From contig JBOZIK010000001.1 in assembly GCA_051453625.1 (NCBI GenBank), positions 15,903,427-15,967,426 on the forward strand: a stretch of 64,000 nucleotides of DNA, read 5' to 3'. This DNA is from Welwitschia mirabilis. Its lineage: Eukaryota. The translations under genes were made by a program, and so were the position numbers. The stretch's first letter is position 1, and each line of letters begins with the position of its first letter. Below the pieces are notes generated by a model, which worked only from the letters and a program-made list of their open reading frames with translations, was not told where the DNA came from and made no database searches. This document shows, in pieces, positions 10,083-64,000 of the stretch.

Positions 10083-11235
10083 TGTTGTGGTGAGAATTTA
10101 TACAATCCTAAAGTTTTTAGGTAAACTTATAAATCAAATAACTTGCAGAAAAACACACACTAGTATAGATGGGATTTCACCTAAATGTCGTAATCCCAAT
10201 GAAGGCACTAGGCTTAGAGTTAGAGAATTGATTTTCAAAGGTATTTTTAGTCTTTTAAATTTAAATAACTAAAAGTAAATAATAAAGTAAATGTAATGCA
10301 ATGAAAATGGATATGAAATGCAAATGGAAATTATATGATTTCTATTGGTTCATAATTCTTCTATCATAAGAACTAGCTTCTCTATAATTTAGATCAGTTA
10401 AGAAGAGTATTTAACTAATTCTTAACTAATATGAACCATGAGATCTACCAAGTAGAATATAGAACGCAATGTGAAATGGAATGGAATAGCAATGCAAATC
10501 TAATACTAACTGAGGTCAACCTTAATAAAGGTTGTCTTTATGATCTAGATAAGTCATAAAATTATCACTTTAAACTATGATCAATGTAAGATATAAGGGA
10601 CATATAGAGAATTAAAATGAAAATAGCAATTTTATTGATTCAAAGAGATATTTAATTAATTTAAGAACTTTACATCTACTTATAATAAATAATATCACCT
10701 CAATAAAAGAGACTCAACCTAACACTAAAGGAACACCTTTCTGTAGCTACTGGCTAGATTTCTTGTCCTTAAATATTTCATCACAAGTATATCAAGTATA
10801 ATAGATGGAAACAGAAATAAAGAAGGGGAGGGGTATTTATAGTTTTATAATGAGGTTATAAAAAATTAACCCTAGAAGGTGGAAAAGAAGCACTAATAAC
10901 TAAAATGGATTACTTGATCCCATTATAAAGATAATTGTTTCTGACCATAGAAAAATAGTTGTCATCCTAACTGTCGTGGGGATGACATAGGGGATGATAA
11001 GATTTCTCATCTTCAATATCAAAGATAAGTTAATCTCTTACAAGATGAAGTCTACTTTCAAATATGCAATATTAGAATAAGCTTAACAATCTGCCAAATA
11101 TATCAAGGATCACATGTTTCATTGATCATCTTGTCAGAACTCCATAATCATTAGTATTACATTCAAACCTGTGTAAATGTCCTACAAAAGAACATAAAAT
11201 ATACCATCAAATTCTTACAAATTAGTCTTGTAACA
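10083..11235 (-). repeat. Athila 3' LTR (LTR-A)
   Basis: TGTTGT...TAACA termini; colinear with 22999-24151. Confidence 0.88.
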
Positions 11236-18700: not shown

Positions 18701-19073
18701 TAATGTTTTCATTCACGGAACAAGTTCCTATTATGATTATAATATTAGATGAAGCAACTTACTTCTTTTTGCAATGATTTTGATGCATTTGACATATTCG
18801 AAGAAGAAACAACATGATCTACTTTTATACTATAATTTTCTTTTGCAAAATTTGATTATAAAATAATGAAAGCAGAAACATATTCTTGTTTAATTCTGGG
18901 AATTTGTATACCTAGGGTGTGTAAAACTAGATTTAGCTTGAAGTTAAACAATCCTTCTCTAATATTTTCTTAGATCAAGTTTCATTCTCTTTGATATTTT
19001 ATCTTCCTACTAGAATTCATCATGTTCTTGCATGCTCAAGCAACAAATAGAAATCAAAATAAAAAATAGTAGA

Positions 19074-19400
19074 CCATCGTCCACTTGGTCATGGAAATGA
19101 CAAGAAGGATAATAATCACAGTAATAAAAATCTAAAACTAAGAAAAATTATTAATAGTAAAGAAGTAGACTATCATCCAGACTTTCATGGGGATGATGGA
19201 GAAAATGATAGTTTTATTAAAATTACAAAAAAAGAAAATGTAAAAAAATATGTAGATTATTGCCTAGTATGTCATGGGGATGACAAGCGAGATGACAGTA
19301 ACTTTATTACCGAACTTCAAATAGAAGAAAAATGGTGAAAGCAGAAATAAATTTTGAAATTTAAGAACTGTCATGCCCTATATCATTGGGATGATAGAGA
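19074..19400. repeat. Four spaced copies of a ~30-bp imperfect palindrome in the Athila 5' UTR
   Basis: Units at about 19074, 19170, 19256 and 19367 of the form CCATCGTCC..GTCATGGGGATGATGG; the same array recurs at about 22472-22815. Confidence 0.7.
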
Positions 19401-19557
19401 GAATCATAGGGTCCCTAAAAAATTAAAAAATAAAATTTTATGGAAATAAACCTATCTTAAACTAAAATAGAATATAACATTAATTGAAATAAAAAACCTA
19501 AATAAAAGATTCAAGGTACTTATTTGGTTAATGATAATTCTCTAGCTCGTTGTGGCC

Positions 19558-19575
19558 TTCCTGGAAATGGTGCCA
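19558..19575 (-). promoter_or_regulatory. Primer binding site (tRNA-Asp type)
   Basis: Minus strand TGGCACCATTTCCAGGAA adjacent to the LTR starting at 19579. Confidence 0.85.
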
Positions 19576-19578
19576 AAA

Positions 19579-20814
19579 TGTTATAGTGTGAATTTATACA
19601 ATTCTCAAATCCTTTAAGTAAACCCATATATCAAATAACTTACAGAAACACACATGCTAGTATAGATGGGAATTCACTTGAATGTTATAATCCTAATAAA
19701 GGCACTAAGCTTAAAGTTAGAAAATTGATTTTCAAAAGTATTTCTAATCTTTTACATTTTAATAACTAAAAGTAAATAATAAAGTAAATGTAATGTAATG
19801 TAAATAGATATGAAATGAAAATGGAAATGGAATGAATTCTATTACTTTCTAATTATTCTATCACAAAAACTAGCTCTCTATAATTTAGATTAATTAAGAA
19901 GAGTACTTAACTTGTTCCTAATCAACATGAACTATGAGATATACCAAGTAGAATAAGGAATGTAATGTGAAGTAAAAATGGAATAACAATGCAACCTAAT
20001 ACTAACTAAAGTCAACCTTAATAAAGGTTACCTTTTTAATCTAAATCAATCACAAAACTGTCACTTAACTATAACCAACTTAAATTATAAAAGACATAAA
20101 TAGAATTAGAATTAAAAGAGTAATTGTATTGCTTTCAAAGAACTTTATATGTACTTATAAATAAAATAGCAGCATCTCAATGGAAGAGACTCAACCTAAA
20201 CACCATAAAAACTTCTTTTTGTAGCTATTAGATGCATCTCTTATTATTTAATCTTCTGTCATAAGCATATAAGAGTACAAAGGATGAAAACAGAATGAAG
20301 GAAGAAAGGATATTTATAGTTTTACATTGAGATTCTGGAAACGCAATCCTAGAAGTTCGAAAAGAAATCCTAATAGCCCAAATGGATCATTTGACCTCAT
20401 TATAAAGATAACTTTTCTCAATTATAAAAAATACTTATCACCCTAACTATTATGGAGATGATATAGGGGATGTCACCCTACATCAATAGGTACTTCATCA
20501 TCTTCATGCCCTGTTGTTAGTCCTATAGGTTTTGTCCATGTCAGTAATGCTATCGTCCTACTTGTCATGAGCATGACAGAAGGGTTGATAGGCTTTCTTA
20601 TTTCTAATGTCAAAGGTAGACCAGTCTTTTGCATGTTGAGTCCTTCTTTCATGTATGCAATGTCAGAATAAGTCTGAGAAACCTCCAAATATGGTAAGAA
20701 TTGTATTTCATTTATCATCCTATTAGATATTTATAATCATCAGTATTGCATCAAAATCTGTGTAAATAGCCTATAAAAGTACTCAAAATATACTATCAAA
20801 CTCCTACAAACTAG
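19579..20814 (-). repeat. Internal Athila LTR (LTR-B), missing about 10 terminal bases
   Basis: TGTTATAGTGTGAATTTATACAA start; colinear with LTR-A, with an expanded middle; ends at CCTACAAACTAG. Confidence 0.85.
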
Positions 20815-21655: not shown

Positions 21656-22998
21656 TAGCATTATCAGTCCCTAATAAAACTAGGTAGTAAATTGTAATTG
21701 TGAGCTAGCCTGTTTAATAGAATATAGACAGAGAAGAGGGAGAATTCTTAGGATCAGCAAGGAAACAGAGGTCCAAGAATGTAGAAATAGAATGGACTGT
21801 CTCATAGCCTTAGACATGTACAACCTTTAGGATGTCTACTGTTACACTTTGCTAAATGGAGATACACACTGACACACATCAATAATCTGGTCCTCAAAGT
21901 ATTGGAATCTCTTCTCAACTGTTAAGATTCTCTACTCTAATGTTTGAGTCCTCTAATCTATAGCCTAGATCCTTTAGTCTAATGTCTAGATATTGTGATT
22001 TATGATGTGTTCTTTACCAAGAGGGCCTAAACCTACTCAAGTGTAATCCCAACCACAGGTCTCTATACCTAAGCTCACTCTGCCTCTNNNNNNNNNNNNN
22101 NNNNNNNNNNNNNNNNNNNNNNNNNNNNNNNNNNNNNNNNNNNNNNNNNNNNNNNNNNNNNNNNNNNNNNNNNNNNNNNNNNNNNNNTAACATATTCAAA
22201 GAAGAAATAACATGATCTACTTTTATACTATAATTTTCTTTTGCAAAATATGATTCTAAAATAAAAAAATATAAAAATTTTCTTCTTCAATTTTGGGAAT
22301 TTGCATACCTATGGTGTGTATAAGTGGATTTATCTTAAAGTTAAATAATCCTTATCTGATGTTTTCTTTGATCAGTTTTCATTCCCTCTGATATTATATC
22401 TTTCTAACAGAATTTACCATATCCTTACATGCTCAAGCAATAAATAGAAAACCAAAATAAAAAAATAATAGACCATCATCTGCCTGGTCATGAGGATGAC
22501 AGGAGGGATGATGATCACAGTAACAGAAATCCAAAACTATGAAAATTTATTAACAATAAAAAAAGCTAGACTATCATCTAGACTATTATGAGGACGACAA
22601 ATAAAATGATAATTTATTTAAACTTATGAAAAAGAAAAATTATGAAATGTAGAAAAGAATGTCAAAAAATTCAATTATCGTCTGACTTTTCATGGGGATG
22701 ATAGAGAAGATGACAATATTTTTATTACTAAACTAGAAATAAAAGAAAAATTGTAAAAATAAAAACTAATTTCAAAATTTTAGAACTGTCATGTCCAATG
22801 TCATTGGGACAATAGAGAGAATGATAGGGTTTCTAATAAAAATTACAAAAAAAAATTATGGAAGTAAATCTACTTTAAACTAAACTAGAAATATAGCATT
22901 AATTTAAATAAATGACCTAAACAAAAGATTTAAGAAATGTATCTTATTAATGAAAATTCTTGATCTCCTTGTATCCTTTCTCAGAAAAAACACCAAAA

Positions 22999-24151
22999 TA
23001 TTATGGTATAAATTTATGCAATCCTAAAGTTCTTTAGATAAACTTGTAAATCAAACAACTTGCATAAGCACATGCTAGTATATATAGAAGTTCACGCGGA
23101 TGTTGTAATCCCAACGAAGGCACTAGGCTCAGAGTTAAAGAATTGATTTTCAAAGGTATTTTTAGTCTTTTATCTTTTAATAACTGAAAGTAAATAATAA
23201 AGTAAATGCAATACAATGAAAATGGATATGAGATGCAAATGGAAATGGGATGAATTATATTGGTTTCTAAATCTTCTATCACAAAAACTAGCTTCTTTAT
23301 AATTTAGATCAATTAAGAAGAGTATTCAACTAGTTCTTAACTAACATAAACTAGGAGATCTATCAAGTAGAATATGGAATGCAATGTGAAATGGAATGAA
23401 ATAATAATATAAATATAATACTAACCAAGGTCATCCTTAACAAATATTGTACTTATGATCTAGATAAATCACAAAATTATCACTTTAAACTATGATTAAT
23501 GTAAATCATAAGGGACATATATAGAATTGAAATGAAAATAGCAATTATATTAATTCAAAGAGAAATTGGATAAACTCAAGAACTTTACATCCACTTATAA
23601 TAGAATAATAGCATCTCAATGGAAGATACTTAGTCTAACACCAAGGAAACTCCTTTCTGTATCTACTGGATGGACTTTTTGTCCTTCAATCTTCCATCAC
23701 AAGCATATCAGGTACAATAGATGGAAATAGAAATGAAGAAGGAGAAGGGTATATATAGTTTTACTATGAGATTCTAGAAACGTACCTATAAAAGTCAAAA
23801 AAGAAATCCTAACATCCTAAATGGTTTTCTTGACTCCATTACAAAGATAATTCTTTTCGACCATAGAAAAATAGATATTGTCCTGACTATCATGGGGAAG
23901 ACATAGAGGACAATAAGTTTCCTCATTTTCAATCTCAAAGGTAAGTCAGGCTCTTACAAGATAAAGTCTTCTTCCAAATATACAGTCTCACAATAAGCTT
24001 AAAAAGCCACCAAATATGCCAAGAATTACATGTTTCATTGATTATCTTATCAGATCTCTATAATCATTAGTATTGCATCCAAATTTGTGAAACTTTTTTG
24101 CAAAAGCACTCAAAATACACCATCAAATTCCTACAAATTAGTGTTACAACA
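22999..24151 (-). repeat. Athila 5' LTR (LTR-D)
   Basis: Preceded by a decayed PBS and a 5' UTR (22188-22998) that duplicates about 18790-19578; ends ACAACA followed by the TSD. Confidence 0.88.
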
Positions 24152-28450: not shown

Positions 28451-29127
28451 GGCCATCCCCAATAAAGTAATTTAGAGGTGCATATCTTCTTATCAACTCT
28501 ATTATTTAATTATTTTAATTTTTAATTCTTTAGTATTATTATGCATTGTTGGTAGGATTCGCATGCAATTTACATCATCTTGTAAATTGTTTGTGTAGAT
28601 ATATCTTATGTAGTAAATGTTTCCACATGTATTAGATGTCTTGTATTAATGTAGACATCTATTGCATAACTCTTATTTTTACAACTATTCTCAGTTGAGA
28701 TGTCTAATGTTGACTGGATAACTCATTTTTTAGTGTTTACTATGATCTTTGAGTATTAAAATATTCATAGTTCATAAATGCATCTTATTAAGATTTTCAT
28801 TTTCTAGAATCAATTTAGTGTAGATGTATCCCATGTTATAGATGTCTTTGAAGTGTGTTTTAAACATCTTTAACTTCCAAGATGTCTATAATTTGGGTAA
28901 AAATGAAGTAAATAATTAGGATTAGAAATCTCTAAAATAACAAACCCCTCCTTATAGACATCATTTTTTCATTCACACAAGTTAGAATGTCTATCTTTCA
29001 AGTTTATCAAGCCTTCTAACCTAAAAGTTTAGCTATTAAAAAATGTTTGCTACCTCCACTAAAGATATATACTCAAATGAAAGAATTCTTCTTCATTTAT
29101 TTTATAATTCCTAATCAATCCTTAGGA

Positions 29128-29390
29128 GCTAGCCACCAAAAAAACCTGGATCTATATAGCCCATGCTTAGTTAGGAACAAGCGAGTAAAAAAGAGGCTTA
29201 AATCTATGTTACCGATGTTAATTCGGGAACTTACCCTATTGTACCCATCCTCACTTAGGCGCTAGCCACCAAAAACAAACCTAGATCTATGTTACCCATG
29301 TTGACTTGCTTTACATTACTTATATTGACTTAAAAACTAACCTCCCAAAAAACCTAGATCTATGTTATCCGTGCTAACTAGGACTACCCG
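29128..29390 (+). repeat. Degenerate tandem repeat upstream of the host gene
   Basis: Three to four copies of (GCTAGCCA)CCAAAAAA.CCT(A/G)GATCTAT(G)TTA(C/T)CC(A/G)TG at about 29128, 29200 (partial), 29261 and 29345. Confidence 0.7.
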
Positions 29391-30018
29391 TAAAAAATAT
29401 CGACTATGACGGAGATTCGTACAATTAAAAGTTTAACATTTACTACCATATAAAAGACTTCGAAACTTGTCAAATATAGACTTACAAACATAACAGAATG
29501 CTTTCAAACTTACTAATTACAGACATGACATGGTAAGGATTCACAAATAGAATAATGATATGTAGCGACGAATGTCGACCAGCCAAAACTTTTATATCCA
29601 GGGAATTTGCAATTCAAATGAGAAGACGTAGCCAAAATGAGAAGACATAGCCAAAGCAGTTGTTGACACTTGTACTGCCATGGCTGTCAAAGCACAGTCC
29701 TTTTCCCCTTCAGAGCGTGGATCATGGACCACAACTCTCGCTGCATCTCCACTTCACTCGTTGTACGCAACATGAAACCCAGCGCACTCTGAAATGACAA
29801 AAGTAAGAGAGAAAATCGTAAACTTTTGCATTTGCAAGTTTTTGCAGAAGGTACAGTGATTCCCTCTCTTCTCTTTCTCGTTCGTCCTCTTCCGTTTTCC
29901 TTTCGCACTTCGATCCAAAATCTTCTTACGTAATCCACAGTCCGGATCTCCTTTTTATGCTTCATAACGTGAATTGTTATTTCAGAACTCTGGAAATCTT
30001 TGAGTCCGGAACTGAAGA

Positions 30019-30711
30019 ATGATGACAGAAATCGCAGATTTAAAGAATAAGAATCATAAGCGAATTTCAGGTCCTTCTGCGAGTGTTTCGTCTTCCGCGT
30101 GTGAGGTGATACGGCGGAGATGCTCCCGCTCTTCGGCTCCGCTTCTTCCGAGCACCGCTGATCAAATAAATTCAGACGAAAGTAAGGAAACGGAGAAAAC
30201 GGAGAAGCAGAAAAGGAAGCAAAGAACGAATTTTCAGTGCGGACATCTGGCGAGATTCGCAGCTTCGTTGTTTAGCTGGAAATATCACAAGCGCAGCAAC
30301 AGCAGTAGCACTTGCCTTTCGAAAACCGCGTCGAATAACAGACCTTGTGAATATTCTAGCCGTAAAGAAGCTACGCGTGATGAGAGTTATGGGAAGAATA
30401 ACTTGATAGAACATGATGGAAACGCAGAGAGAGGTATGGAATCGGATTCAGAACTCTTTGATCTTCCGTCTTTCAAGTATGCAGATGCTGAAGCTAAATC
30501 CTGCACTACCGTTGTCGCTGCTGCACCTCTCTCCCTCGTATCCGCCAAAAGAACAAGTAAATTCACTAAGAAGAGCGATCTGGACGAAGATGACAGCAAG
30601 AATGGAGGGAGAAGTAGTGGCTCCAGTTCAGATCTGTTTGATCTTCCTGCATTCTTCCTTTTAGCACAACCTGCAACTCATGCAGCTTTCACTACAGCTT
30701 GTGTCACATAA
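30019..30711 (+). CDS. BG1-like: BIG GRAIN 1-like protein (230 aa, intronless)
   Basis: The only long intact ORF, in a CpG-rich island. Motifs GHLARFAASLFS (cf. GGRLASFLNSLF), SSSTCLSKT (cf. SRSCLSKT) and SSSDLFDL (cf. SSDLFEL) occur in BG1 family order. A pyrimidine-rich leader lies upstream. Family assignment is from recalled motifs. Confidence 0.8.
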   Translation: MMTEIADLKNKNHKRISGPSASVSSSACEVIRRRCSRSSAPLLPSTADQINSDESKETEKTEKQKRKQRTNFQCGHLARFAASLFSWKYHKRSNSSSTCLSKTASNNRPCEYSSRKEATRDESYGKNNLIEHDGNAERGMESDSELFDLPSFKYADAEAKSCTTVVAAAPLSLVSAKRTSKFTKKSDLDEDDSKNGGRSSGSSSDLFDLPAFFLLAQPATHAAFTTACVT

Positions 30712-31506
30712 AATGGAGTGAAGTACAGGTGATTCATAGATTTTCATTTGACTAAGAAAATTTCTAACCTTGGAAACGGTGATAAGATTTCTTTGACGAT
30801 TGTGGTGGATATCTAAAAACACCTGGAAATTTTTTTTGAAATCCTCTATTTTTGTAGATAACTTCTTGCAGTGGATTTAGTCTGGAAAATGTTTGGGCTT
30901 CCGCGAATAAGACTTTCGGAGGAGACATTTGTGTGGATAGCCTGTTGGTCCAGGTTTAGTGAGCATATGAACAATCAGTACAAGGATGATTTGTTTCATC
31001 AGGTCTTTTTACTAGTTTTTATTTTAACTTTCTGTCTACATCTTTTGACAAATTTTCAAGTTGTTTTGAGATTTTATTAATAGTTATAATTTCATATATT
31101 TAGTTGCAAAGCGAAGAGTGTTAGCAAGTTCATCAAATCTAATGGTTTTGTAAGGAAACAATTTCAGTTTATGTATTTAAATAAAATATATTTGTTATTT
31201 TTATTTATATGTTAATAAATTGCATGCTTCTTAGAAATTCGAAATCAAAAGTCATTTGATAGACTTAAAAAAGACAAATGTGAATATTAAATTTTTTCAA
31301 AACATCGAACTACAAAAACAAATTGGGAAAAACGAAAATTTATGGTCATTTATTAAGAAGAGCATTATTTCTCAAAAGCAAAATACGCTCAAGAAAATTT
31401 ATTAGTATAACTTTGTTAAATTTAGTTAAAAACATTTTAATGGCAAAGCAGTGCTCCTATAACTTTGTATTTCTGAGTTCAATTATAAAATAAAAACTCT
31501 TTCAGC

Positions 31507-38840: not shown

Positions 38841-40301
38841 TGAGGATTATTAAATTGAGAAGAGAAGGGTGAATGAGTTTCATTAAATAAAATTTAAATT
38901 GAATTATAAAATGAAAATGTACAATAAAAACACCATATCAAATGACATGATTATCCAACTTGGGTACATTCACATACAAAGGATACCTTCTACTCACATA
39001 TCTAGATATTCTTAACCTAAACGAAAATAGTGGTTTTCTAGCACATCACTAACCTTTTGAAAAATGCAAGTCACCTCATAAGATAGTACTCTCTTCACCT
39101 CAAGGGAAAAGTGGTTTTTATAGTTGCATCATGAACCTTTATAATAGTAAAGCTCTCCTCGTAAGGCAACACTCTCTTCCTCATAAGAAAATAATGGTTT
39201 TCTAACTATCTAGTAATATTAATTAAACAAGTGCCTTAAAGCACAATCTAAAATGCACACTCCTACAAGGACTGCCTTACAAAGTGTTTGATATTTAGGA
39301 ATGGACTTACAATAATATTTAATAATAAGATAGTCCAAAATGTAAACTAAAAGAACAAAGCAATAATAAGCCTAAATATTTTTCTTTGATTATGACTTAA
39401 TCTCCTTGATGATGTTGTTATTATCAAAATCAGGAATCAAGATAATAGCACTATAGATTCAAGATTTAAAGATGAAAGTAATGCAAGCTTCATGCTAATG
39501 ATTCCTTGATTCTTCATGAGAAGTTCCTTTCACTTGTGCATTTGTCATTCTTGATCTAATTATTGTGTATCAAGATTCAAATTTGAGTATTCATTATTGT
39601 TCCAAAAGTTCTTCTTTGTTTTGTCATGTTGAGTCTTTATATGATTTAGAAAGATCTAGCTTTTTGGGCATGAAATTTAGCCATTTAACTTTATAACCAT
39701 CATATAATGGATAAAGAGCATCTAGGCATTAGACACATAACTTTAGTTTTAATTGACATGAACTTTGATTTGAGATATCTTCTAAGAGTCATAGATCTTT
39801 ACCTTATAGATGTCTTTAGTTAACTTGCACAAATCTAGATGAATTTTATTCTATAATTTTCTTAGGCCATTTTGACCATGAATCTGTGATGTATAAGTTC
39901 ATATCTCACCTAAAATCCTAGTTATTAGTTTAAAAAAATTAAATTTATTACTTGTTTTAGCTTAGTATGGACATCTTCAAATATGTAGATGTTTTCATCT
40001 ATGTTAGGTTCAACTTTAAACTTAGTTATCGTGAATAGGTAATCGTCTTTTAACCTATGACTTGATTTTAGTACATCCAAAACATCTTCAAATTCCTTGA
40101 CATATTTACTTAAAACATATTTAATATTTTATATGTTTTCAAATAATTGATCTTATAGTTTTAGCATCTAATCCTTTTATAAGATGTTGTAGCTAAAGAT
40201 CCATTATGATTCTAGTATCTATCAAGATTTGATGTTCTTGTGATAACCTATTTATGCAAAATATTTGATAAGTGGAATCATCAAAACTAGATTTATCAAC
40301 A
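38841..40301 (-). repeat. SIRE 3' LTR
   Basis: TGAGG...TCAACA; colinear with 45938-47425. Confidence 0.9.
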
Positions 40302-45937: not shown

Positions 45938-47425
45938 TGAGAATCATTAAACTTAAATGAGATGGATGAATGAGTTTTACCAAATTAAATTTAAATCAAA
46001 TTATTGAATGAAAATGCTCAATAAAAAACACCTTATCAAATAATGTGATTGCCTAACCTAGGTACATTTACACACAGAGGGGAGCTTCTACTCACACCTC
46101 CAGATATTTTTGACCTATAAGAAACTAGTGATTTTTTGGTATACCACCAACTTTATAACAAATAAGATTCATCTTATAAGGTAGTAATATCTTTGTCTCA
46201 AGGAAATAGTGGTTTCAATAGGTGCACCATCAACCATTATAATAATGAGAGTGTCTTCAAAAGATAACACTCTCTTCCTCACAAGGGAATAATGGTCTTC
46301 TAGCTTAATAACAACCTCACATCAAATAAGTACCTAAAAGCATAATTTCAAATGCATATTCCTATAAGAGCTACCTTATAAAGTTTTTAATATTCAAGAA
46401 TGAACTAATAATAATATTTAATAATATAATAGTTTACAATGTAAACCAAAAGGACAAAATAATAACAAGCCTTAAGATTTTATCTTAATAAGATTTAAGA
46501 TCCTTGATGATGTTGTTATCATTATGAGTATCAATGAAGATAATAGGAATGTAGATCTAAGATCTAGAGATGAACTTAATGCAAGTTTCTTGCTAATGAT
46601 GTCTTAATTCTTTATGATAAGTTCATTTTACTCATGTATTCATTATTTTTAATCTAGTCATTATGTGTCGAGATTAAAAGTTGAGTAATTGTTATCATTT
46701 CAAAAGTTCTTCTTTATTTCATGGCGTCAAGGCTTTATACATTTGAGGAAGATCTTATCATTTGAGCTTGAAAGGTAGTCGTTTAACTTTGTAACTATCA
46801 CACAATGAATATGAATATCTAGGCATCAAATTCATGACTTTGGTTTTAATCAATGTGAACTTTGGTCTGAGATGTTTTCACTTTTATAAACATCTACTAA
46901 TAGTCAGATGTCTTTACCTTATAGACATTTTTAGTTAATTTGCTTAGATTTTATTGAGTTTTACTATTTAGTATACTTAGTCCTCCATGGTTACAAATCT
47001 ATAATGTACAAGTTTAGAGATCAATTCAAATCCAAGATATTAATTAAAAACAATGGACTCTATTCCTTGTTTTAGCTTAGTATAGATGTCTTCAAATATG
47101 TAGACATCTTCATCTATGTTAGGTTCAATTTTTAGCTTAGTTATCTTAAATAAGGTAGTTTTCTTTTAGCTTATGACTTGATTTTAGTACATTCAAGATG
47201 TCTTCAAATTCCTAGAAACATTTACTCAAGACATTTTGAATATTTTAGAAATCTTCAAACAATTGATCTTGCTATTTTAGCGTCTTATCTTTTTTATGAG
47301 ATGTTATCTCTGAAGATCCATTATGATCTAGTATTTATCAAGATTTTATGTTCTTGTAATGACATGTCTATACAATGACACAAAATATTTAACAAGTAAA
47401 ATTATCAAAACTAGATTTACCAATA
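45938..47425 (-). repeat. SIRE 5' LTR
   Basis: Adjacent to the PBS (TACCA at 45931-45935); colinear with 38841-40301. Confidence 0.9.
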
Positions 47426-53419: not shown

Positions 53420-53666
53420 TGTAATGTTCCAAAATCATTAATTAAATAATGATATATGTTAAACACTAATGATGCATGGTTAATAACATATGTAAATGTG
53501 TGTAATCCAAATATGTAAAGATGTGTCCCTTCATTATGTAGTATAAGCCTATGGCATTAGGTAGAGGTGAATAGACTGGGTGGATTTAACCGATGATAAC
53601 CTTGCTTAATCTCCAAGGGTCCCAGAAGGGGGACTAAGGTCATAGTTCCTGTCTTTACCTATAACC
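53420..53666 (+). repeat. Partial LTR of the chromovirus family, cut by an N gap
   Basis: TGTAATGTTCCAAAATCATTAATT...; colinear with 54827-55072. Confidence 0.9.
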
Positions 53667-54199
53667 NNNNNNNNNNNNNNNNNNNNNNNNNNNNNNNNNN
53701 NNNNNNNNNNNNNNNNNNNNNNNNNNNNNNNNNNNNNNNNNNNNNNNNNNNNNNNNNNNNNNNNNNAAAATTGATATCAAAATGTATTACATAGTTTAGA
53801 AACTTTATTAATTAAAGCTTACAAAATGTGGGTTATAACAAAAATCACTTACCTCTATTCTCAAATGAAATTTGTTCTCCTCATCAGGTGAAACAAGATC
53901 ATGAGATGAAACAAGAAGTAGAAGAATCTTTTCCTTTTATTGAGATCAAGATGTTCAAGATGAAGATTCCTCCTAAGCACACATCTATGAAAAAAAAGCA
54001 ACTTAGTAATAAAAAAGCTTAAGAAAAATAAGGAAAACATAGTATTATAAAAAAAAAAGAATACCTTATCAAATAACATAACACCGACAGATGAATACAC
54101 AAGGTCACCCTTCTTATTAGAAAAAAAATATGGCTTCATAAGGATCAAGTTGAGGAAGAGAAGATAAAGGTATGATAACATTAGAAGGAAGATTAGATT

Positions 54200-54826
54200 A
54201 TTGAATATTTATGAAGGAGGTGCCATCATGAAATGCAAAGTACAAGGATAGAAAACCCATCTATAGGTTAGAAGACCACTATCAAAATTCTACTTTGTCC
54301 TATCAAGCTATGAAATAATCTTTGAATAAATGATAAAACTCTAATCATAGGAGACATCCTTGTAGGGAGCAATAGATAAAAGATACAAAGCATATTTTAA
54401 AATCATAGATAATCGAGAATGTAATAAAACTCTACAAGAAATTAGTAGTCTAAGAGACTTAAAGTGGAAGACAGGAATAGTCTTTAAGGATTTCCCATGA
54501 TAGCCATGTCAATGCAATTTTTCACCGATAAAATCAAAAGATGTAGTTTCTAAAAAGTTTAAATTCTATAATTCATAAGTATAAAACTTTATGAGCTTAA
54601 GAATACCTTGAGATAAGCCTAAAATATCTTAAGTCAACTATGCATTAATGGAAACCAAATCAAACTTTGAATACAAAAGAACTAAGTTTTTGTATTATAA
54701 GAAAAGAAAATAGAGTCCAAACTCAACCAAACTCCTCTTAATTTAATAAATTACAAATGTATTCATCCACAGAATAAAGGTTACAAGTAGACCAATAAGT
54801 TTTTGGAAAGGCTTTTGAAGGGTTAT
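54200..54826 (+). pseudogene. Possible L1 ORF1 relic, target of the chromovirus insertion
   Basis: Weak DUF4283-like pattern and a decayed knuckle (CIHPQNKGYK) near 54757-54787. Confidence 0.3.
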
Positions 54827-55245
54827 TGTAATGTTCCAAAATCATTAATTGAATAATGATGTATGTTAAGCACTAATAAAGTGTGGTTAATAAGAGATGT
54901 GAACAGGTGTAATCCAAATATGTAAAGATGTGTTCGTTCATTATGTAATATAAGCCTATGGCATTAGATGGGAGTGGATAGACTAGGTGGATGTAACCAA
55001 TAACAATGTTGGCTAATCCTCAAGGGTTCCAAAAGGGGGACTAAGGCCATAGTCCATGTATTTACCTATAACCATTAGTATAAGACTATTTTCTAATGAT
55101 GTGGAATGTAAAATTCTGCTATTAATAATAAAAGGCTGCTTCTTTTTAAATTTTTCCTTGTTATTTCTATGAATCCTAGTATATTATTTTAAATATTCTC
55201 TTTTTTTTTGAAAGTAATCCAAAAATAGTAAAATGGAACATTACA
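54827..55245 (+). repeat. 5' LTR (419 bp) with 12-bp perfect terminal inverted repeats
   Basis: TGTAATGTTCCA ... TGGAACATTACA. Confidence 0.93.
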
Positions 55246-55247
55246 TT

Positions 55248-55260
55248 TGGTATCAGAGCC
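55248..55260 (+). promoter_or_regulatory. Primer binding site (tRNA-iMet)
   Basis: TGGTATCAGAGCC, 2 nt after the LTR. Confidence 0.95.
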
Positions 55261-55399
55261 AATAACAAGTGGTAAATCACTACTTAAGGAAAACAAGAAA
55301 GAAACTTAGTTTATAAATTAAATAGCTAAAGGCCAAAGAGTACATCAAAGGATAGGAATATAATGATCAAAAAAAGCAAGGTGCCAACAAAAATAGGGT

Positions 55400-56609
55400 T
55401 TATAATACCTTGATAAAGAAAATTAAAACATCACTACTAAGGAGGAAGAAGAGCCTCCATAGAGAAGTTAACAAGGTTGTGATCCTTCATGCTTAGGATG
55501 GTAGGCTTCATGTCATTGGATCTACTTTCATCCCCATAGGCTATGTTGGAACTGCCACAATACTAATTTTAATTAAAGAAGAAGCTTCTATAGATTATGC
55601 TCTACTAATAGGATATGGCTACTTATAGAGCTTCATATGAAGCTCAATATAAGCAATCAAAGTCCCCAGTATATGTTCTTTAGAGATCTTCCCATCATAA
55701 TATAATACATTGATGTTATCAATAGTAATGGCTAAATAATCCACATAGGCCTAAATCATCCTCTCACTCTTTGTTAGCTGAGTAGACAAGGCAGTTTGAC
55801 TTTCTTCTATTGCAGTCATACATGAAGCATCTACCTATGATTTCTTCTCTGAATAATGCATGTTATACCTCATTCGCTAACATCTAGAGGAAATCACTCA
55901 TGGACTTCCACTCATTGATCCCATGATGAGCCATTCAGTAAAATGACTCCATCATATCAATCATGTTATAGAAATCTTGGAGTGGAGAAGGCTATTCACA
56001 CTGTGAAGAATAATGAAGGGTGAAATAATCAGAATGAATGTATTGAAAGTTCCATGGTACATTTGTTTCCTTAGATTGATGATGGATGTAGACATCATCT
56101 AGTCTTAAATGATGTGTAACCTATGCATGCAAAGGACTGAAAAGGGACAGTTAATCCCCTATCTAATCCATCAAGTCCTTGACCTTAAGGTACAAGGTAT
56201 TTACCATTAATAGAAGCTGATTGATATGATAAGATACTTAACATTGTTCATTTATAATGAAATATGGAGCTATAGGAAAGTGGTGAGAAAGCTTTAAAGA
56301 AGAGTAAGCAATAGGAGGACTCTGACTTAGAGGGTAAAAATAGAGGGTTGGAAGAGGACATATCCCCTTGATCCATTAAGGTATCAAAATCATTAAGTAC
56401 CTCTTCTCCTTGAGATTTGAAAGAGAACAATAAATCCATGAAGAGGCCATTAGAAGGGGCAGAAGGAAAACTTTCACTTACAATGATGCACTCCTTCCTT
56501 AACTACCGATAAGAGAGCTTCTCTAAAGGCTATGGGATAAAATCCATATTCTTCTTGACCAAAGTCTCTGCATAAGAAACCTAAAATAAAATGAGCAAAT
56601 ACCTATGGT

Positions 56610-56647
<38 letters not shown>

Positions 56648-56747
56648 NNNNNNNNNNNNNNNNNNNNNNNNNNNNNNNNNNNNNNNNNNNNNNNNNNNNN
56701 NNNNNNNNNNNNNNNNNNNNNNNNNNNNNNNNNNNNNNNNNNNNNNN

Positions 56748-56819
<72 letters not shown>

Positions 56820-57729
56820 AAAAAAGAGATGGTAGTGGATGATACCCCATGGAGTTAGTGTTGCTTAGAAATACTAAGGAGTACATCCTCTTCATATTTT
56901 AGGTCTACATGCATAGGGCAATTTACTAGAGCTTTTTCATGTTTCTAGTAGAAAGAGTCATAAGATCCCAAAGCCTTACTCATCTACAAACAATAAATAA
57001 TAAAAACTAGAGTTATTAGAAATATAGTTAATAATAAGATTCCTTAGCAAAACTCATACCTTAGATGGAATAGAGAAATTACTCTGAGATCTCTCTCCAG
57101 GGTTATATCTCTTAAAGCCTTTATCCTCCATAGATGAGGAAGAATGAGGATGTAATAAAGATTAAGAAGCAATCTCATGAGGAGCTAAAACATAAGAGGA
57201 ATCTACAGAAATAGCCATAAATGATTATAGAACCTCTAAATCCCTAAAAGAAAAAATATAAACTAGTAAAATATGATCACAAAAACACTTCCCCTTTCCC
57301 TATTTTTCTTTAAGTGGGTTAATTAAAAAAGAGTGGAAGAACAAACAACTAAGGCCAAATCAAAAGAAACTCCACTAGTGAAAAAAGTGAATAAGTAAAT
57401 TATGTAGGTGGGAATCTCACTCACCCAATCATGAAGAAAGGCCCTACTAGCAATCAGCTTTCTAAAAGCTACAAAATATGAAGTGGTAAAATTGATAGTA
57501 GAGATCATATGGCGATAGGTATCCACCTCCTGCATACACATAAAATCATCCAAGAAATTGGCCAAGACGTAATGGATATTCTCATCTAAATAAGAGACTT
57601 TAAGAGTAACATGATTACCTTCACTTATTTTAATGATCAACTAGATGCTCTCCTCTAAAATTTGAATTGGACCATGGTGAGTATAGATAATGATATAAGT
57701 ATGTGTATCAAAGGAAGAATATAGGGAAT
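55400..57729 (-). pseudogene. Decayed spliced antisense accessory gene of unknown function inside the chromovirus
   Basis: Long minus-strand reading frames (including ORFs 57323-57640 and 56248-56439) broken mostly by single stops consistent with C>T changes. A candidate intron 57059-56581 (AAG|GTATGA...TTTATTTTAG|G) joins two frames in phase 0. Confidence 0.6.
56610..56816. repeat. (GA)n microsatellite spanning an N gap
   Basis: Read directly from the sequence. Confidence 0.95.
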
Positions 57730-58308
57730 CTAGGATGAAAATAATTATAAGATGATAAAAATAGAAATATGAAAAGCCACAGAGATTTAAGAAATTAGAG
57801 GAGAAGACCTAAGAGAATCCTTACTCTAAAGGGTGTTATTGTATTTTCAACTTTATAGACCTAACATTGGAAGAATTCTAAGAAATGGTTGGAAAATGTT
57901 TGGAAGACATACCTTAACCAAAAGAAGAAGTACATCTACAAATATTAAAGGGAATTCATATTTATAGGTAAAAAAAAGTTATGAAGGGCCTACACAAAAA
58001 ATAAAAAAGGAAAAAAATATTAAAATAAAAGCAAAGGAGAAAATAAAAATATCAAAAAAAGAGATAATGGAAGAATAAATAAAAAATTACTAATTTAATT
58101 ATGGAGGCATGTGATAAAAAGAAGTAAAAAATGACAAGACCATGGATCTATTTATAGCAGTGTAACAGGGTTTAACCTAATTATAAAATAATAATTTAAC
58201 CTAATCCTAAAATAATAATTAACTATAGTTAATGATATCTCAGTTAAATGGAAACAACTCCAGTTAACTACAAAAAAACCAAGGCCCTAAAATATAGTGA
58301 ACTAAAGG

Positions 58309-59075
58309 CCAATGTCACAGTCTTAAATGGTCAAGATTGCACTGTAGAGGTCAACATCGCACTTCCAAATGGCCGATGTCATACTTCATAGGCCAACATT
58401 ACACTCTTAGATGACTAGTGTTTCACTTCAAAGACTGAACCAAAGGACCAATGTCACACTTCCAAAAGGCTGACGTTACACTTTGAAGGTCAGTTTTACA
58501 CTTTAAAGGCCCACATCTCACTTGGTCTCACCAAACTTGATGTTGTAATTTGAAGTCCCTCAAAGCCTGATGTCATACTTGGGTGCTTAACATTACATTT
58601 GGATGCCCAACATTGCACTTTTCCTTTATAGGTCTAGATTTTACTATTTTTCCACAAAAATTACTTGCTCTACTCACTTGCCCTAGGAATCCTAATGTCG
58701 CGCTTAGGTTGCCAACGTTGCACTTGAGTGGTTGACATCGCACTTGAGTGCCTGACATTGCATTTGCCCCGCATAGGCCCAAAACCTTTTGTCATATATT
58801 AGAAATCACACATTCTTTCACTGACACAAAGGATCTAATGTTGCACTTGGATGGTCAATGTTAAATTAGAGTGGCCCATGTCACACTTGGATGGCTGATG
58901 TTATACTTTGGTGCTTGATATCAGACTTGTTATCTGTAACCCTAAAATCTTTTATTGCCTCTTATAAATCACCTATTTTGTTCACTAGAATAAGGGTCTG
59001 ATGTTACACTTGATGGTTTGATGTCATACTTAGTGACCCGATGTCGTACTTGAGTCCTTGACACCATCCTTGGAC
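58309..59075 (+). repeat. Degenerate tandem array, about 20-22 bp period, inferred core CCGACGTCGCGCTT
   Basis: Roughly two dozen variants such as CCAATGTCACACTT, CTGACGTTACACTT, CTAATGTCGCGCTT, CCAACGTTGCACTT and CCGATGTCGTACTT. Confidence 0.85.
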
Positions 59076-59499
59076 GCTTGGTAACACGTGAATTCCCTTT
59101 GACAATTGTTAGCCATGTTAGTAAGTTTGCTATGGTAACTGCTAAAACCTATTTTCTCTAACCATTTTCTTAACTACTAGGTGGTTATAGATTCCCAAAT
59201 ACCACCAACAACACTATAAAAAGGTAGCATCACTAGAGGTAAAAGGGGAGGGAGAGCAAGAGAATACTTTCACAATAAGGCAGAGATGTATAAGTTGAAA
59301 AAGGCAGTGAACCCACTAGTATATCATGGAACACAAGATCAATGGATGAATTATGCATTAGAAGGCCAAATTAATAATATCCACTCCTAAAATTAACAGT
59401 TAGCTAATATGATCAATAGCTTTCTTTCTCACATAGAAGAAAGACCTATAGAATGCAACCTAAGGGCATCTCAAGAACTGCCATCCACATCAGGACAAC

Positions 59500-62400
59500 A
59501 TACTCCTACAACTAATATTAACCTCTAAAACATTCAAATGAGGTTATTAAACATGGAGGCGAATCTTCAAGATTTTTTGATAAATAAAGCCAATCATTCT
59601 AACATTGAACAACATGAAGAAGAGGAACTTATAAGAATGAAATTTTGAAAGACCTATGAAGGCAAGCCTAAAATAAGTGAGGAACCCATATCTTGGATCT
59701 AGTAATTAAATAAGTATTTCAAACTTTAAACTATACCTCTAGAAAGGTGGTGCATATATGTTATTGCATTTATTATAGGAAATGCACAACAATGATGCTC
59801 TAGATATCAACAGAAACACCTGCATAGGATATCATGGATTACTTTCATTAAAGAATTTAAAAGAAAATTCATTCTAGAAGATTTTATTGAAGATTAAATG
59901 GTGGAATTTCAATGTATACACTTGGGTAAATGATTATTTGATGAACATTGGTTAGAATTCTAATGTCTTAAGAACTATCAAAAGAAGTTTTTAGAAAAGT
60001 AACTAATTAATAGTTTTATTGGGACTTTTTCATCCAAACTTTAAAGCGTTCTATGCACTTTGAAAATCGAGTCCATAGAAGATTCCTAATGAAAAACAAG
60101 GTACTATCTCTAAGGACAAAAGAATAGATGAATGAACTAATCATACCAAGGAGATTGGCATCCTCCTTCAATCACAGCACTAACAAGGAAGCCATATAGA
60201 ACAAATTGTACCTATTATAAGTACCATAAGAGGGAACATATTACCAGGAATTATATTTCCAAAGCATAACCATCAAATGTTCCCTAGCACAATTAGCCTC
60301 AAACTCTTTAGAATCAGTCCATGCCATCCAAAAGGATTTATGTTGCCATTCAAACATGTGCTTACAATCAATACTTCATCTTAGAACTATGTCATCATAT
60401 TTCAACATGTTATTGTTTAATTTCTAATTGATATTAGTGCATCACATAATTTCATTTTACCATCTTTATTTTACAAATTAAATATCACTTCTTTTAAAGA
60501 ATAAAAGTCCACCATAGGAGTTACAGGAGATAGTGTTCTTACATAAGATGGAACTATTGCTCTTATTACTTTTACCATTTATAACTTATAGTCTAGGGAT
60601 AAGTTTTATATCTTATAAATTCAAGAAAATCATACCATTTTAGGAAATCATTTCTTAATTAGATATAATGTTTATATTAACTTTCATCAAAGAACCTTAT
60701 GGCTATCTCATTTATTTGAACAACAAAATTTTAAAAGGGAGTAGAGGAGTAAAAAATAACTTTTTAACCTCATCCAAATAAATTACAAAAGTTATCAAAA
60801 GGAAATAGATGTTCATTACTTTAGTACAAGAAAAAGATCATAAAAAAGGTCCTTTTGTACTAGAAGAACTAAATGAATTTTCAAATGTATTTGAAGATCC
60901 ACAAATGCTACTACTCAAGAGAAAATTACAGCACGCAATTAATTTAATCCCTCGAGCACAGGTAATAGCTAAAGCATCTTATTGTTTCTCAAAAATAGAA
61001 CTAAGAGAACTAAAGTTATAGATCAAATAGCTATTATTGGAAGGAAAGATGCATCTTAGTATGTCACCATGGGTGAAACTAGTATTATTTATTAAGAAAA
61101 AGGATGATAACTTATCACTCTACATGGACTATAGATAATTCAACAAAGTAACCATCAAGAATAGATACATACTATCATGGATCAATGACCTATTAGATTA
61201 ATTGTAGGAAACCAAGTACTCTTCAAAGATCATTAAAAATCTAGATACCATCAGATCTGTATCAAGGATAAGGACATCTATATAACTTCTTTCAAAATAA
61301 GATATAAACATTAAAAATTTGTAGTAATGCCTTTTTATTTGACAAATGTCATAGCCACTTTTATGAATTTAATGAATGATGTTTTTTGGACATACTTGAA
61401 TAAATTTATGGTTTTATTTTTAGATGATTTCCTAATATATTCTAAAAGTTAGAATGATCATGTTACACATTTGAATAAAGTTCTATAGGTTTTTCCCAGT
61501 TCTATAGATTTTTTCCAAGATAAATTCAAGAAAAAATTAAGTAAATGTGAATTTTATTATACATAAATCAATTATCTGGAGCATATCATCTCCAATAAAG
61601 AAAGTATAACACATTAAGCTAAAGTACAAGTAGTAAGAAAATGGCTAAAATTAAAGGATGCCAGTCAAGTACGAAGTTTCTGAAAATTGGCTAGCTTCTA
61701 CCAGAAATTTGTTCTAGGATTTTCTCAACTTGTAGTACCATTAACAGATTTTACTAAAGTGAGAAATACATTCTACTTCGATGATAAATGCAAGGAGGCA
61801 TTTCTTATATTCAATTTACTACTTATAACAACACTAGTCCTTAAGATTATAGATGTAAACAAATCATTTATAGTCACCACAAATGCATTTACTTAAGGAA
61901 TTGGAGCCATACTTAGCTAAGATGATCAGGTAATTGCATATGAATCATGGAAACTAAACCATCATGAGAAGAACTATTACATACATGACTTGGAATTATT
62001 ATCCATACTTCATGCCTTAAAGATTTGGAGGTATTATCTTATGGAAAGTGAATTCCTTTTCAAAACAGATCATAAAATCTTGGAATCTTTTCAGAAACAA
62101 CCCCTTTTAAATATGCGATAGAGGAAATGGGGTGAGTTAATTAAAAAATGTAACTTCAAGTTACAATACATGCTTGTAAAATAAAACAAAGTGATAGATG
62201 TCTTGACTACAATGTGATGTATATTAGCTACCACTATCACATCTGACTTGTCCACCTTCATTAAAACTTCCTTGATTGATGATTCATACTTCAAGGACAT
62301 ATATCAATAAGTTCAAAAAGGAAAAGAAGTAGATACATATATAATCTTATGAGATGGATTCCTTCTGAAAAGAAGATAATTATGCATTCCATAAGATCCA

Positions 62401-63650
62401 TAGAGAAGGACGCTAAAGTCTAAACTGCATAAAGTTTCATATGCAAGACATTTGGAATTTGTCAAAAAATACCATCAATTATAGAAATACTAATTTTGAC
62501 TCAATATGAAAGTAGATTTAAAAGAATACATTTGCAACTATCCTATATGCTAGTAGATGAAAATTAACCAAGGAAGACCCACTAGACATCTTCAGCTATT
62601 AGGAATACCATAATGGAAATGGAAAGAGATATTCATCACTAGGTTACCTTTCACTAATAAACATTATGATGTAATTTTTAATTATGTAAATAGCTTAATT
62701 AAGATAGCCCATTTTATCCTACTCTGAATTACTAATATAGTAGAAGAGGTAGATCTTCATTTTATATAGAAGGTCTTTAGATTATATGAAGCACCTCAAG
62801 TTGTAGTATCTAATTAAGACCTAAAGTTATTATCTAAATTTTAGCAAAGCTTCTTTCACCACTTGGGTATCAAACTCAATTTTAGTATTGCTAGATGACC
62901 AAATAGAAAGAATAAATCATATATTGAAAGAAACTCTAAGATGTTATGTGGCAGGAAGGCTCAAACAATAGAAAAACTACCTACATCTAGTAAAATTTGC
63001 TTATAACTAGATATTTCAAACTTCCATCCATTATTCACCATTAGAGACAATATATGATAGAAACTATTCTACCCCTGTCACATGATTAGATCCTTCATAG
63101 AGATTAGAAAATACAACGCCTTCAAAATTAAATATAATGGAGGAAGCAATCAATAAAATAAAATACACCTATAGGTGACACAAGATCAATATAAGAAATA
63201 TTATGATTAAAAGCACTAGACCTGCATATTTTAGATAGTTAAATAAGTTTTATTAAGAATTAAGCCAAAAAGAAACTCCTTGAAAATCAAAAAGTATAGG
63301 ATATTAGTACCACAGTTCAACAATCCATTTAAAATTATTGAAAAGATTGTGAATCTAGTTTACAAACTAGAGCTTTCTCTCCAAATGTCCCAAATACATC
63401 CAGTTTTTCATGTGAGCATAATGAAACCATACTATAAAGATTAAAACTAGGACTAAACCTTGAACTAGCAATATATCATGCTCAAACCCAATTTGACTTT
63501 TATTATTCAATTAGAAAAAGTCATAAGTACTAGACCTAGGCAACTAAGAAATAAAATTATAAAAGAAGAACTTATTTAATGGACTCATTATAATCAACAA
63601 ATAGGGTAAAATAGGGAGTACATATAAAAGACCTTTTCTAGAATTTTTAA
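59500..63650 (+). pseudogene. Chromovirus gag-PR-RT-RNaseH-INT-chromodomain relic
   Basis: LIDISASHNFI at 60424; FLDD at 61417; RNase H HEKNYYIHDLELL near 61960; PFKIIEK...IHPVFHVS at about 63325-63417; chromodomain-like EKVISTRPRQLRNKIIKEELI*W near 63510-63582. Confidence 0.92.
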
Positions 63651-63836
63651 TAAAGTTTGATATACCATTTTTAGGTTGTATTATTAATGTATATATTAAT
63701 TAAATGATGTATTCTCTTTTGTGTTATGTATTATAGCTTATACCAAAAATAACTCAAAGTTGCATGACTTTAATAATGATGCAAATAGAAGAGAGAATGT
63801 ACTCAAGAATAAGCAAGATTATTAATAGGAAGGGAA

Positions 63837-64000
63837 TGTAATGTTCTAAAACCATTAATTGAATAATGATGTGTTTTAAATGCTAATGATGCATAATTAA
63901 CAAGAGATGCAAATGGGTGTGAATTAAATATGTAAAGATATATTTCTTCATTATATAGTATAAGCCTATAGTATTAGGTAAAAGTGGATAGATGAGGTGG
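63837..64000 (+). repeat. 3' LTR (partial, runs off the window)
   Basis: TGTAATGTTC... after the PPT; colinear with 54827-54990. Confidence 0.92.

Follow-up and report, generated by a model that had tools for sequence, protein, structure and literature searches.

The tandem array at positions 58303-59071 of the 64-kb stretch of DNA analyzed here (referred to below as the window) is best read, from its sequence, as a worn minisatellite that lies in the 5' leader of a retrotransposon, upstream of gag. Our best explanation, to which we assign a probability of roughly 0.45, is that this decayed minisatellite was carried on RNA driven by the long terminal repeat (LTR) and was once a cluster of sites bound by a factor; a neutral minisatellite is nearly as likely as such a former cluster. 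The initial annotation had presented the array as a divergent, LTR-independent promoter flanked by two TATA boxes, a claim that we consider unsupported but not refuted.

RESULTS

The array-bearing element is an old, inactive, and degenerate LTR retrotransposon of the plant Ty3/gypsy type. Its layout comprises a 5' LTR (54827-55245), a primer binding site (PBS) (55248-55259), a leader of about 4.0 kb, a gag-pol region (about 59286-63600), a polypurine tract (PPT), and a 3' LTR that extends past the window edge. The 5' LTR (419 bp, plus strand) starts with TGTAATGTTCC and ends with GGAACATTACA, its inverted repeat, and is homologous to 63837-64000, the plus-strand start of a 3' LTR that continues beyond the window. 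We thus find what is expected of Ty3/gypsy elements, namely, two LTRs bounded by TG...CA and by short inverted repeats at their termini, the end of the 3' LTR lying outside the window, as well as a PBS adjoining the 5' LTR and a PPT adjoining the 3' LTR. The PBS, TGGTATCAGAGC, which we take to be of the initiator tRNA-Met (tRNA-iMet) type, stands on the plus strand 2 bp past the LTR end and is the sole match without mismatch in the window; the PPT, AGGAAGGGAA (63827-63836, plus strand), directly precedes the start of the 3' LTR at 63837. Over 163 bp, the 5' and 3' LTRs are 77.9% identical (31 transitions, 5 transversions, K2P distance of 0.28), which at commonly used plant substitution rates would suggest an age on the order of 10 to 20 million years.

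Sequences that begin with TGTAATGTTCC occur three times in the window, at 53420, 54827, and 63837. The first of these is an additional plus-strand copy of the LTR start (53420-53666, LTR "A"), 84.6% identical to 54827-55073 and ended by a 100-N gap. It is 86.5% identical to the 5' LTR over 163 bp, with K2P distances of 0.15 to the 5' LTR and 0.24 to the 3' LTR, and it is nearer to the 5' LTR than the 3' LTR is (77.9%). LTR "A" may be a solo LTR or reflect an assembly problem, and the stretch that follows it (53767-54826) resembles the leader, gag, and the end of pol no more than shuffles do. A TATAAG word in the 5' LTR (54949-54954, plus strand) is embedded in TATAAGCCTAT, which is identical across all three diverged LTR copies, and this word is a candidate for the ordinary promoter box of the LTR.

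A Pfam scan of the window translations, with stops read as X, identified a degenerate pol on the plus strand (60845-63600) that contains RVT_1 (61234-61578), RNase H (61852-62145, RT_RNaseH with an E value of 6e-23), an integrase zinc domain (62401-62562), and SH3_Tf2-1 (63247-63432). Upstream, gag is represented by a weak Retrotrans_gag match (59769-60020), the E value of which (0.0019) is under the curated cutoff and the frame of which differs from that of the pol domains. In these read-through translations, the domains follow one another in the order gag, RT, RNase H, and integrase, which is that of Ty3/gypsy elements. Twelve full-length plant polyproteins, chosen from the 120 matches listed, all match 60845-63600 in tblastn comparisons, and none of the 12 matches gag at an E value of ≤0.001. 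The RT match starts at residues 439 to 621 of these polyproteins, which places the start of the polyprotein of the element at about 59000-59540. The ATG at 59286 fits this interval and is our candidate gag start, an approximate placement given that it relies on the length of gag and protease in the 12 references. From this ATG to the end of the weak gag match (59286-60020, plus strand), the frame is broken by many stops, and stops occur throughout every frame of the element, which makes this copy a dead one. In the protein comparison, 227 of 2712 candidates scored an E value of ≤0.001; because the best full-length plant matches are only 26 to 33% identical, these candidates provided neither a protein of the same family nor a lineage assignment.

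The window as a whole has a GC content of about 0.28, with a range of 0.15 to 0.35 except for one stretch, together with a CpG observed/expected ratio of 0.195 and 15 runs of N, and it looks like part of a draft plant assembly. The sole stretch of raised GC content (0.37 to 0.43), at 29001-31000, may be a gene. A pair of direct repeats of 1.49 kb (38841-40299 and 45938-47423), 75% identical and about 7.1 kb apart, may represent the two LTRs of a further old element. Other long direct repeats, 77 to 83% identical, were found at 1189-2862 and 2963-4636, at 18792-20470 and 22190-23910, and at 10095-11235 and 23011-24151; only a 100-N gap separates the members of the first of these pairs, which points to a tandem duplication or to an assembly artifact.

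The leader, at about 4 kb between the PBS and gag, is unusually long for an untranslated leader. Its exact length is uncertain because a 100-N assembly gap in mid-leader splits an (AG)n microsatellite (56610-56816) in which at least 53 units are present. No recognizable gene was found on either strand of its first 2.9 kb (55260-58139). An A-rich tract lies at about 57971-58140, and a 24-bp unit repeated 2.1 times lies on the plus strand at 58171-58220. Self-comparison revealed no further copy of the leader in the 64-kb window. Two metagenome contigs, L001 and L002, each carry a plant-like LTR retroelement with the same junction of LTR end and PBS (25 bp, 96% identical to that of the window), and in both of them only about 130 bp separate the PBS from a gag ATG that is followed by a broken gag, with a weak gag match in L002. 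On this comparison, a leader of about 4 kb is not the rule for such junctions. We rejected the two contigs as further copies of the family since their likeness to the element of the window is limited to the 25-bp junction.

The initial annotation described a tandem array of about two dozen repeats internal to the element, and both parts of this description hold. We counted 27 units of 20 to 22 bp, each made of a 13-bp core and a linker of about 7 bp, all on the plus strand and spaced mostly by 20 or 22 bp (58303-59071); 26 of them were recognized with at most two mismatches, and one more stands in register at 58856. The degenerate core YRAYRTYRYRCTT, with at most one mismatch, matches the window 37 times versus 15.8 ± 4.1 times in shuffles, none of 100 shuffles reaching 37, and 21 of the 37 matches fall within 700 bp (58352-59051), 20 of them on the plus strand and one, overlapping, on the minus strand. 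The array lies 3 kb into the element and ends about 215 bp before the candidate gag ATG; it is outside the LTR, which ends at 55245 with its inverted repeat and is followed at 55248 by an exact PBS. The units are of two types, type I at 58310-58523 and type II at 58538-59071. Three homologous higher-order blocks (58621-58765, 58766-58928, and 58929-59071, plus strand), each composed of a spacer of about 70 bp and of four to five units, measure 145 to 163 bp and align along both spacers and units upon self-comparison. The array is strongly degenerate, to the point that TRF recovers only pieces of it, with scores of 52 to 66.

The mean frequency of the major base is 0.87 to 0.90 at the non-CpG positions of the core versus 0.56 to 0.74 in the linkers, a contrast that is partly circular, given that the units were chosen by their match to the core, and that is confounded because the G-rich linkers are more mutable. 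The present array shows no excess of RNA structure (z score of -0.87, with 6 of 20 shuffles folding as well), and no Rfam match was obtained at E values of up to 1. A degenerate pattern spanning three units had no match in viral contigs, and we discarded its two matches in genome contigs, which are bacterial, as due to chance.

The array had also been called CpG rich, which it is not today, with 11 CpGs in 789 bp, a GC content of 0.41, and a CpG observed/expected ratio of 0.34, values that fall short of the usual CpG island thresholds (observed/expected ratio of 0.6 and GC content of 0.5). The ratio is nevertheless above that of the surroundings (0.05 in the leader, 0.11 in gag-pol, and 0.195 in the whole window), and this value, about six times that of the rest of the leader, could reflect partial protection from methylation rather than a richer start. 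An ancestral CpG had been proposed at four sites of the unit, and the coexistence of TG and CA variants supports three of them: among the units, the first site reads CA in 9, TG in 10, TA in 4, and CG in 2; the second reads TG in 14, CA in 8, CG in 2, and TA in 1; and the third reads CA in 8, TA in 7, TG in 6, and CG in 4. At the fourth site, with CA in 17 units, TA in 6, CG in 1, and TG in none, the ancestor was more likely CA than CG, and the reconstruction ending in GCGCTT thus overshoots. Similarly, the proposed GACGTC with its ACGT core is found in none of the 27 units today, and ACGT is found in only 2 of the 27, so that the present units do not display the C-box or ACGT element of bZIP target sites; what stands of this proposal is a palindromic core, the former ACGT center of which we infer from the mixture of CG, TG, CA, and TA at the core sites, a pattern of decay.

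The words to which the initial annotation had pointed are all present in the sequence. The left TATA word, CTATTTATAG on the plus strand, reads CTATAAATAG on the minus strand (58148-58157); the right one, TATAAAAA (59215-59222, plus strand), stands 64 bp ahead of the candidate gag ATG; and the telo-box-like AACCCTAA lies at 58938-58945. The two TATA words are nearly symmetric about the array, at about 146 and 144 bp from its ends, which counts in favor of the initial annotation. Their density, however, is no more than chance would produce and lends no support to their interpretation as divergent TATA boxes: the window contains 207 copies of TATAAA (3.3 per kb over both strands), six of them within 57900-59400. 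From the densities in the window, we estimate at roughly 0.1 the joint chance that a plus-strand word lies within about 215 bp to the right of the array and a minus-strand word within about 215 bp to its left, and the true value is above this estimate because the local DNA is even more AT rich. The full CTATAAATA is found on the minus strand both at 58149-58157 and at 57959-57967, 190 bp apart and flanking the A-rich tract, and seven of its eight occurrences in the window are on the minus strand. We conclude that the two flanking words most likely reflect chance in AT-rich DNA rather than a dedicated divergent promoter.

A G-box word, CACGTG (59085-59090, plus strand), one of two in the window, stands 14 bp past the last unit and 125 bp before TATAAAAA, and it may be a G-box or a further, decayed unit. 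The order formed by the array, CACGTG, 125 bp, TATAAAAA, 64 bp, and the ATG resembles that of a plant promoter. A polypurine run at 59241-59265 (AAAAGGGGAGGGAGAG, then C, then AAGAGAA), situated downstream of the right TATA word and ahead of the candidate gag ATG, is PPT-like and has no LTR start after it. The telo-box-like word is located on the plus strand in the spacer of the third higher-order block and in that block only: TAACCCTAA is read there once, the corresponding positions of the other two blocks have a different sequence, and the telo-box AAACCCTA(A) itself does not occur, AAACCCTA being absent from 58000-59300. This part of the initial annotation is thus correct as to the presence of the word, which is not kept in two of the three paralogous blocks.

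The antisense gene that the left TATA word was supposed to serve went undetected. The six frames of 54800-58300 gave no Pfam match apart from a subthreshold one on the translated (AG)n, and a phmmer comparison of one of the three minus frames with 1.84 billion representative proteins gave a single match of low complexity (SLSL). The frame submitted to phmmer was that containing 6 of the 11 minus-strand open reading frames (ORFs) of at least 40 amino acids, the other two minus frames being covered by Pfam only. The protein matched, P0121 (E value of 3.4e-4), was rejected as a relative of an antisense product since the SLSL match falls on the translated (AG)n. The longest ORF of the leader is 105 amino acids, and ORF lengths and stop counts on both strands are within those of shuffles; this result is uninformative about an antisense gene because the true gag region, equally decayed, is equally devoid of ORF signal. 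With a purine fraction of 0.55 to 0.60 on the plus strand of the leader, an mRNA from the minus strand would be pyrimidine rich. An orphan antisense ORF decayed past detection may nevertheless have existed; published antisense extra ORFs are also reported to be mostly without database relatives (PMC7264820).

DISCUSSION

We favor, tentatively, the explanation that the array is a decayed minisatellite that once formed a cluster of binding sites. The young unit would have contained a palindromic 8-mer with an ACGT center and three CpGs. The array would have arisen by slippage, template switching, or unequal exchange, and the ordinary LTR promoter would have driven its transcription within the full-length RNA. 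In this copy, methylation and subsequent deamination would have removed the CpGs except for about one in ten, and we count in favor of this picture the dominance of transitions in the divergence of the LTRs (31 versus 5). In the active family, and this is the most conjectural step, the cores may have been binding sites, two helical turns apart, for a dimeric DNA-binding factor, a role that we favor because the core is better kept than the linker and because the units are phased by 20 bp. Such a cluster would modulate the transcription of the element from inside the leader, as do the Su(Hw) sites of Drosophila gypsy, and the array would in addition offer CpG methylation a dense set of targets. 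This explanation is built on one copy of the leader. Points against it are the partly circular and confounded contrast between core and linker, the promoter-like order of the array, CACGTG, TATAAAAA, and the ATG, the near symmetry of the two TATA words, the CpG ratio of the array relative to that of the rest of the leader, the leaders of about 130 bp in the two contigs that share the junction, and the possibility that a leader of 4 kb holds foreign inserted DNA.

The rival that survives best, although somewhat unlikely when taken by itself, is that the array is a neutral by-product, a minisatellite generated by slippage or template switching in a noncoding leader and without a role for the element or the host. 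Its strong degeneracy, with TRF recovering pieces only, would fit such an origin, as would the lack of excess RNA structure and of Rfam matches in the present array. In addition, about half of the recently active Retand clusters possess family-specific internal arrays, the function of which is stated to be unknown (PMC11963269). A neutral origin accounts less well for the palindromic core, for the regular 20-bp phase, and for a core that is better kept than the linker in both unit types, this last contrast being the partly circular and composition-confounded one described above.

We regard as improbable the reading of the array as an LTR-independent promoter firing in both directions, toward gag from 59215 and toward an antisense gene from 58157, or, in a weaker form, in the sense direction only to yield a subgenomic gag-pol mRNA. 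The array is indeed internal to the element, CACGTG, TATAAAAA, and the ATG have a spacing like that of plant promoters, and the left word, which is a good full CTATAAATA with respect to the TATA consensus, is followed by a pyrimidine-rich tract on the minus strand. Against this reading, the TATA words are at chance density, the antisense gene was detected neither by Pfam in six frames nor by phmmer in one minus frame, the mRNA from the minus strand would be pyrimidine rich, the CpGs have decayed the way those of methylated DNA do, the telo-box-like word is not retained among the blocks, and a TATA-like word is already present in the LTR, identical in three of three copies. There are precedents for internal promoters: gene23 of Grande is reported to have its own (PMC7264820) and the 5' untranslated region (UTR) monomers of mouse L1 are tandem promoter units (PMC9022269, PMC6454616).

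We give little credence to the idea that all or part of 55260-59285, including the array and the right TATA word, was brought in by another mobile element, for example as a solo LTR with U3 repeats and a TATA box. The distance of about 130 bp between the PBS and the gag ATG in the two contigs that share the junction would be consistent with an insertion, as would the sharp shift in composition from the A-rich tract (57971-58140) to an array with a purine fraction of 0.45. Yet neither an LTR pair nor terminal inverted repeats nor a target duplication delimits the segment, no part of it has a second copy in the window, and Pfam identified no remains of a transposase or a reverse transcriptase in it. 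The best inverted repeat, at 57938-57958 and 59089-59109 (21 nucleotides, 86%), was rejected as a boundary since it is at chance level and is strongest at its inner end.

Very improbable, in our estimation, is a leader-embedded module like the monomers of L1, evolved by a plant Ty3/gypsy family with short LTRs, in which tandem CpG palindromes would drive an LTR-independent subgenomic gag-pol mRNA from the local TATA box together with an antisense transcript, under a methylation- or bZIP-type switch. Finally, we consider highly unlikely an RNA-level signal, in which the self-complementary cores of the leader RNA would serve genome dimerization or Gag packaging: the core is palindromic and, like retroviral packaging and dimerization signals, the array sits between the PBS and gag, but the present sequence shows no folding advantage over shuffles (z score of -0.87, 6 of 20), the array is 3 kb from the PBS, and we know of no precedent in plants.

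As it stands, the array is ordinary, in that plant LTR retrotransposons commonly possess internal tandem arrays and the copy described here has long been dead. Two points have some value: the location is the 5' leader and not the interval from pol to the 3' LTR, which is better known, and the decay of CpGs around a palindromic core can be clearly read from the units. If LTR-independent transcription starts or the binding of a factor to the core were established in young copies, the array would represent a control module embedded in the leader of a plant LTR element, with a bearing on how such elements escape or attract silencing.

Several known systems provide points of comparison. Mouse L1 monomers are about 200 bp long, and Ty1i of yeast starts within gag, which results in a truncated Gag. 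The likeness to L1 lies in tandem units placed upstream of the first ORF, which in the L1 5' UTR act as an internal promoter (PMC9022269, PMC6454616). L1 differs in having no LTR and hence needing such a promoter, whereas the element described here has an LTR with a TATA-like word, and its units of 20 bp (in blocks of about 150 bp) are unlike the L1 monomers in size. Ty1i offers a case of an LTR-independent start within an LTR retroelement (bioRxiv 10.1101/176248), with no repeat array involved. The VANC targets of Arabidopsis VANDAL21 are short motifs that likewise occur as tandem repeats in noncoding parts of a mobile element (PMC5735166, PMC10398659), and the initial annotation had suggested, by analogy, a platform bound by the antisense product of the element itself. 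However, VANDALs are DNA transposons described as encoding the binding protein, whereas here we found the array only, the Pfam and phmmer comparisons having yielded neither such a protein nor an antisense product.

Among plant Ty3/gypsy elements, internal tandem arrays are reported to be common (PMC11963269). The families of the Tat lineage (Retand, Grande, and RIRE2) are similar in that they are described as combining a long noncoding internal region with a family-specific short tandem array (PMC11963269), and they also possess antisense ORFs, with gene23 of Grande under its own promoter (PMC7264820). In these families, the extra region is placed downstream of pol, before the 3' LTR, and carries an antisense ORF, often with a TRP28 domain, whereas that of the present element lies between the PBS and gag, upstream of gag, with no match to TRP28 (PF04195) or another domain in Pfam and with a PBS of the presumed initiator-Met type.

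A close parallel to the arrangement that we favor is Drosophila gypsy, the 5' UTR of which contains 12 Su(Hw) sites in 340 bp that act as an insulator (PMC2374998). Both are Ty3/gypsy elements with short, phased sites that point one way, are separated by variable linkers, and occupy the leader upstream of the first ORF. They differ in the kingdom of the host and in the motif, and the present array has 27 units and higher-order blocks, its function being putative. We place the locus among the internal tandem arrays known from plant LTR retrotransposons; it is unusual solely in its position, within a very long 5' leader.
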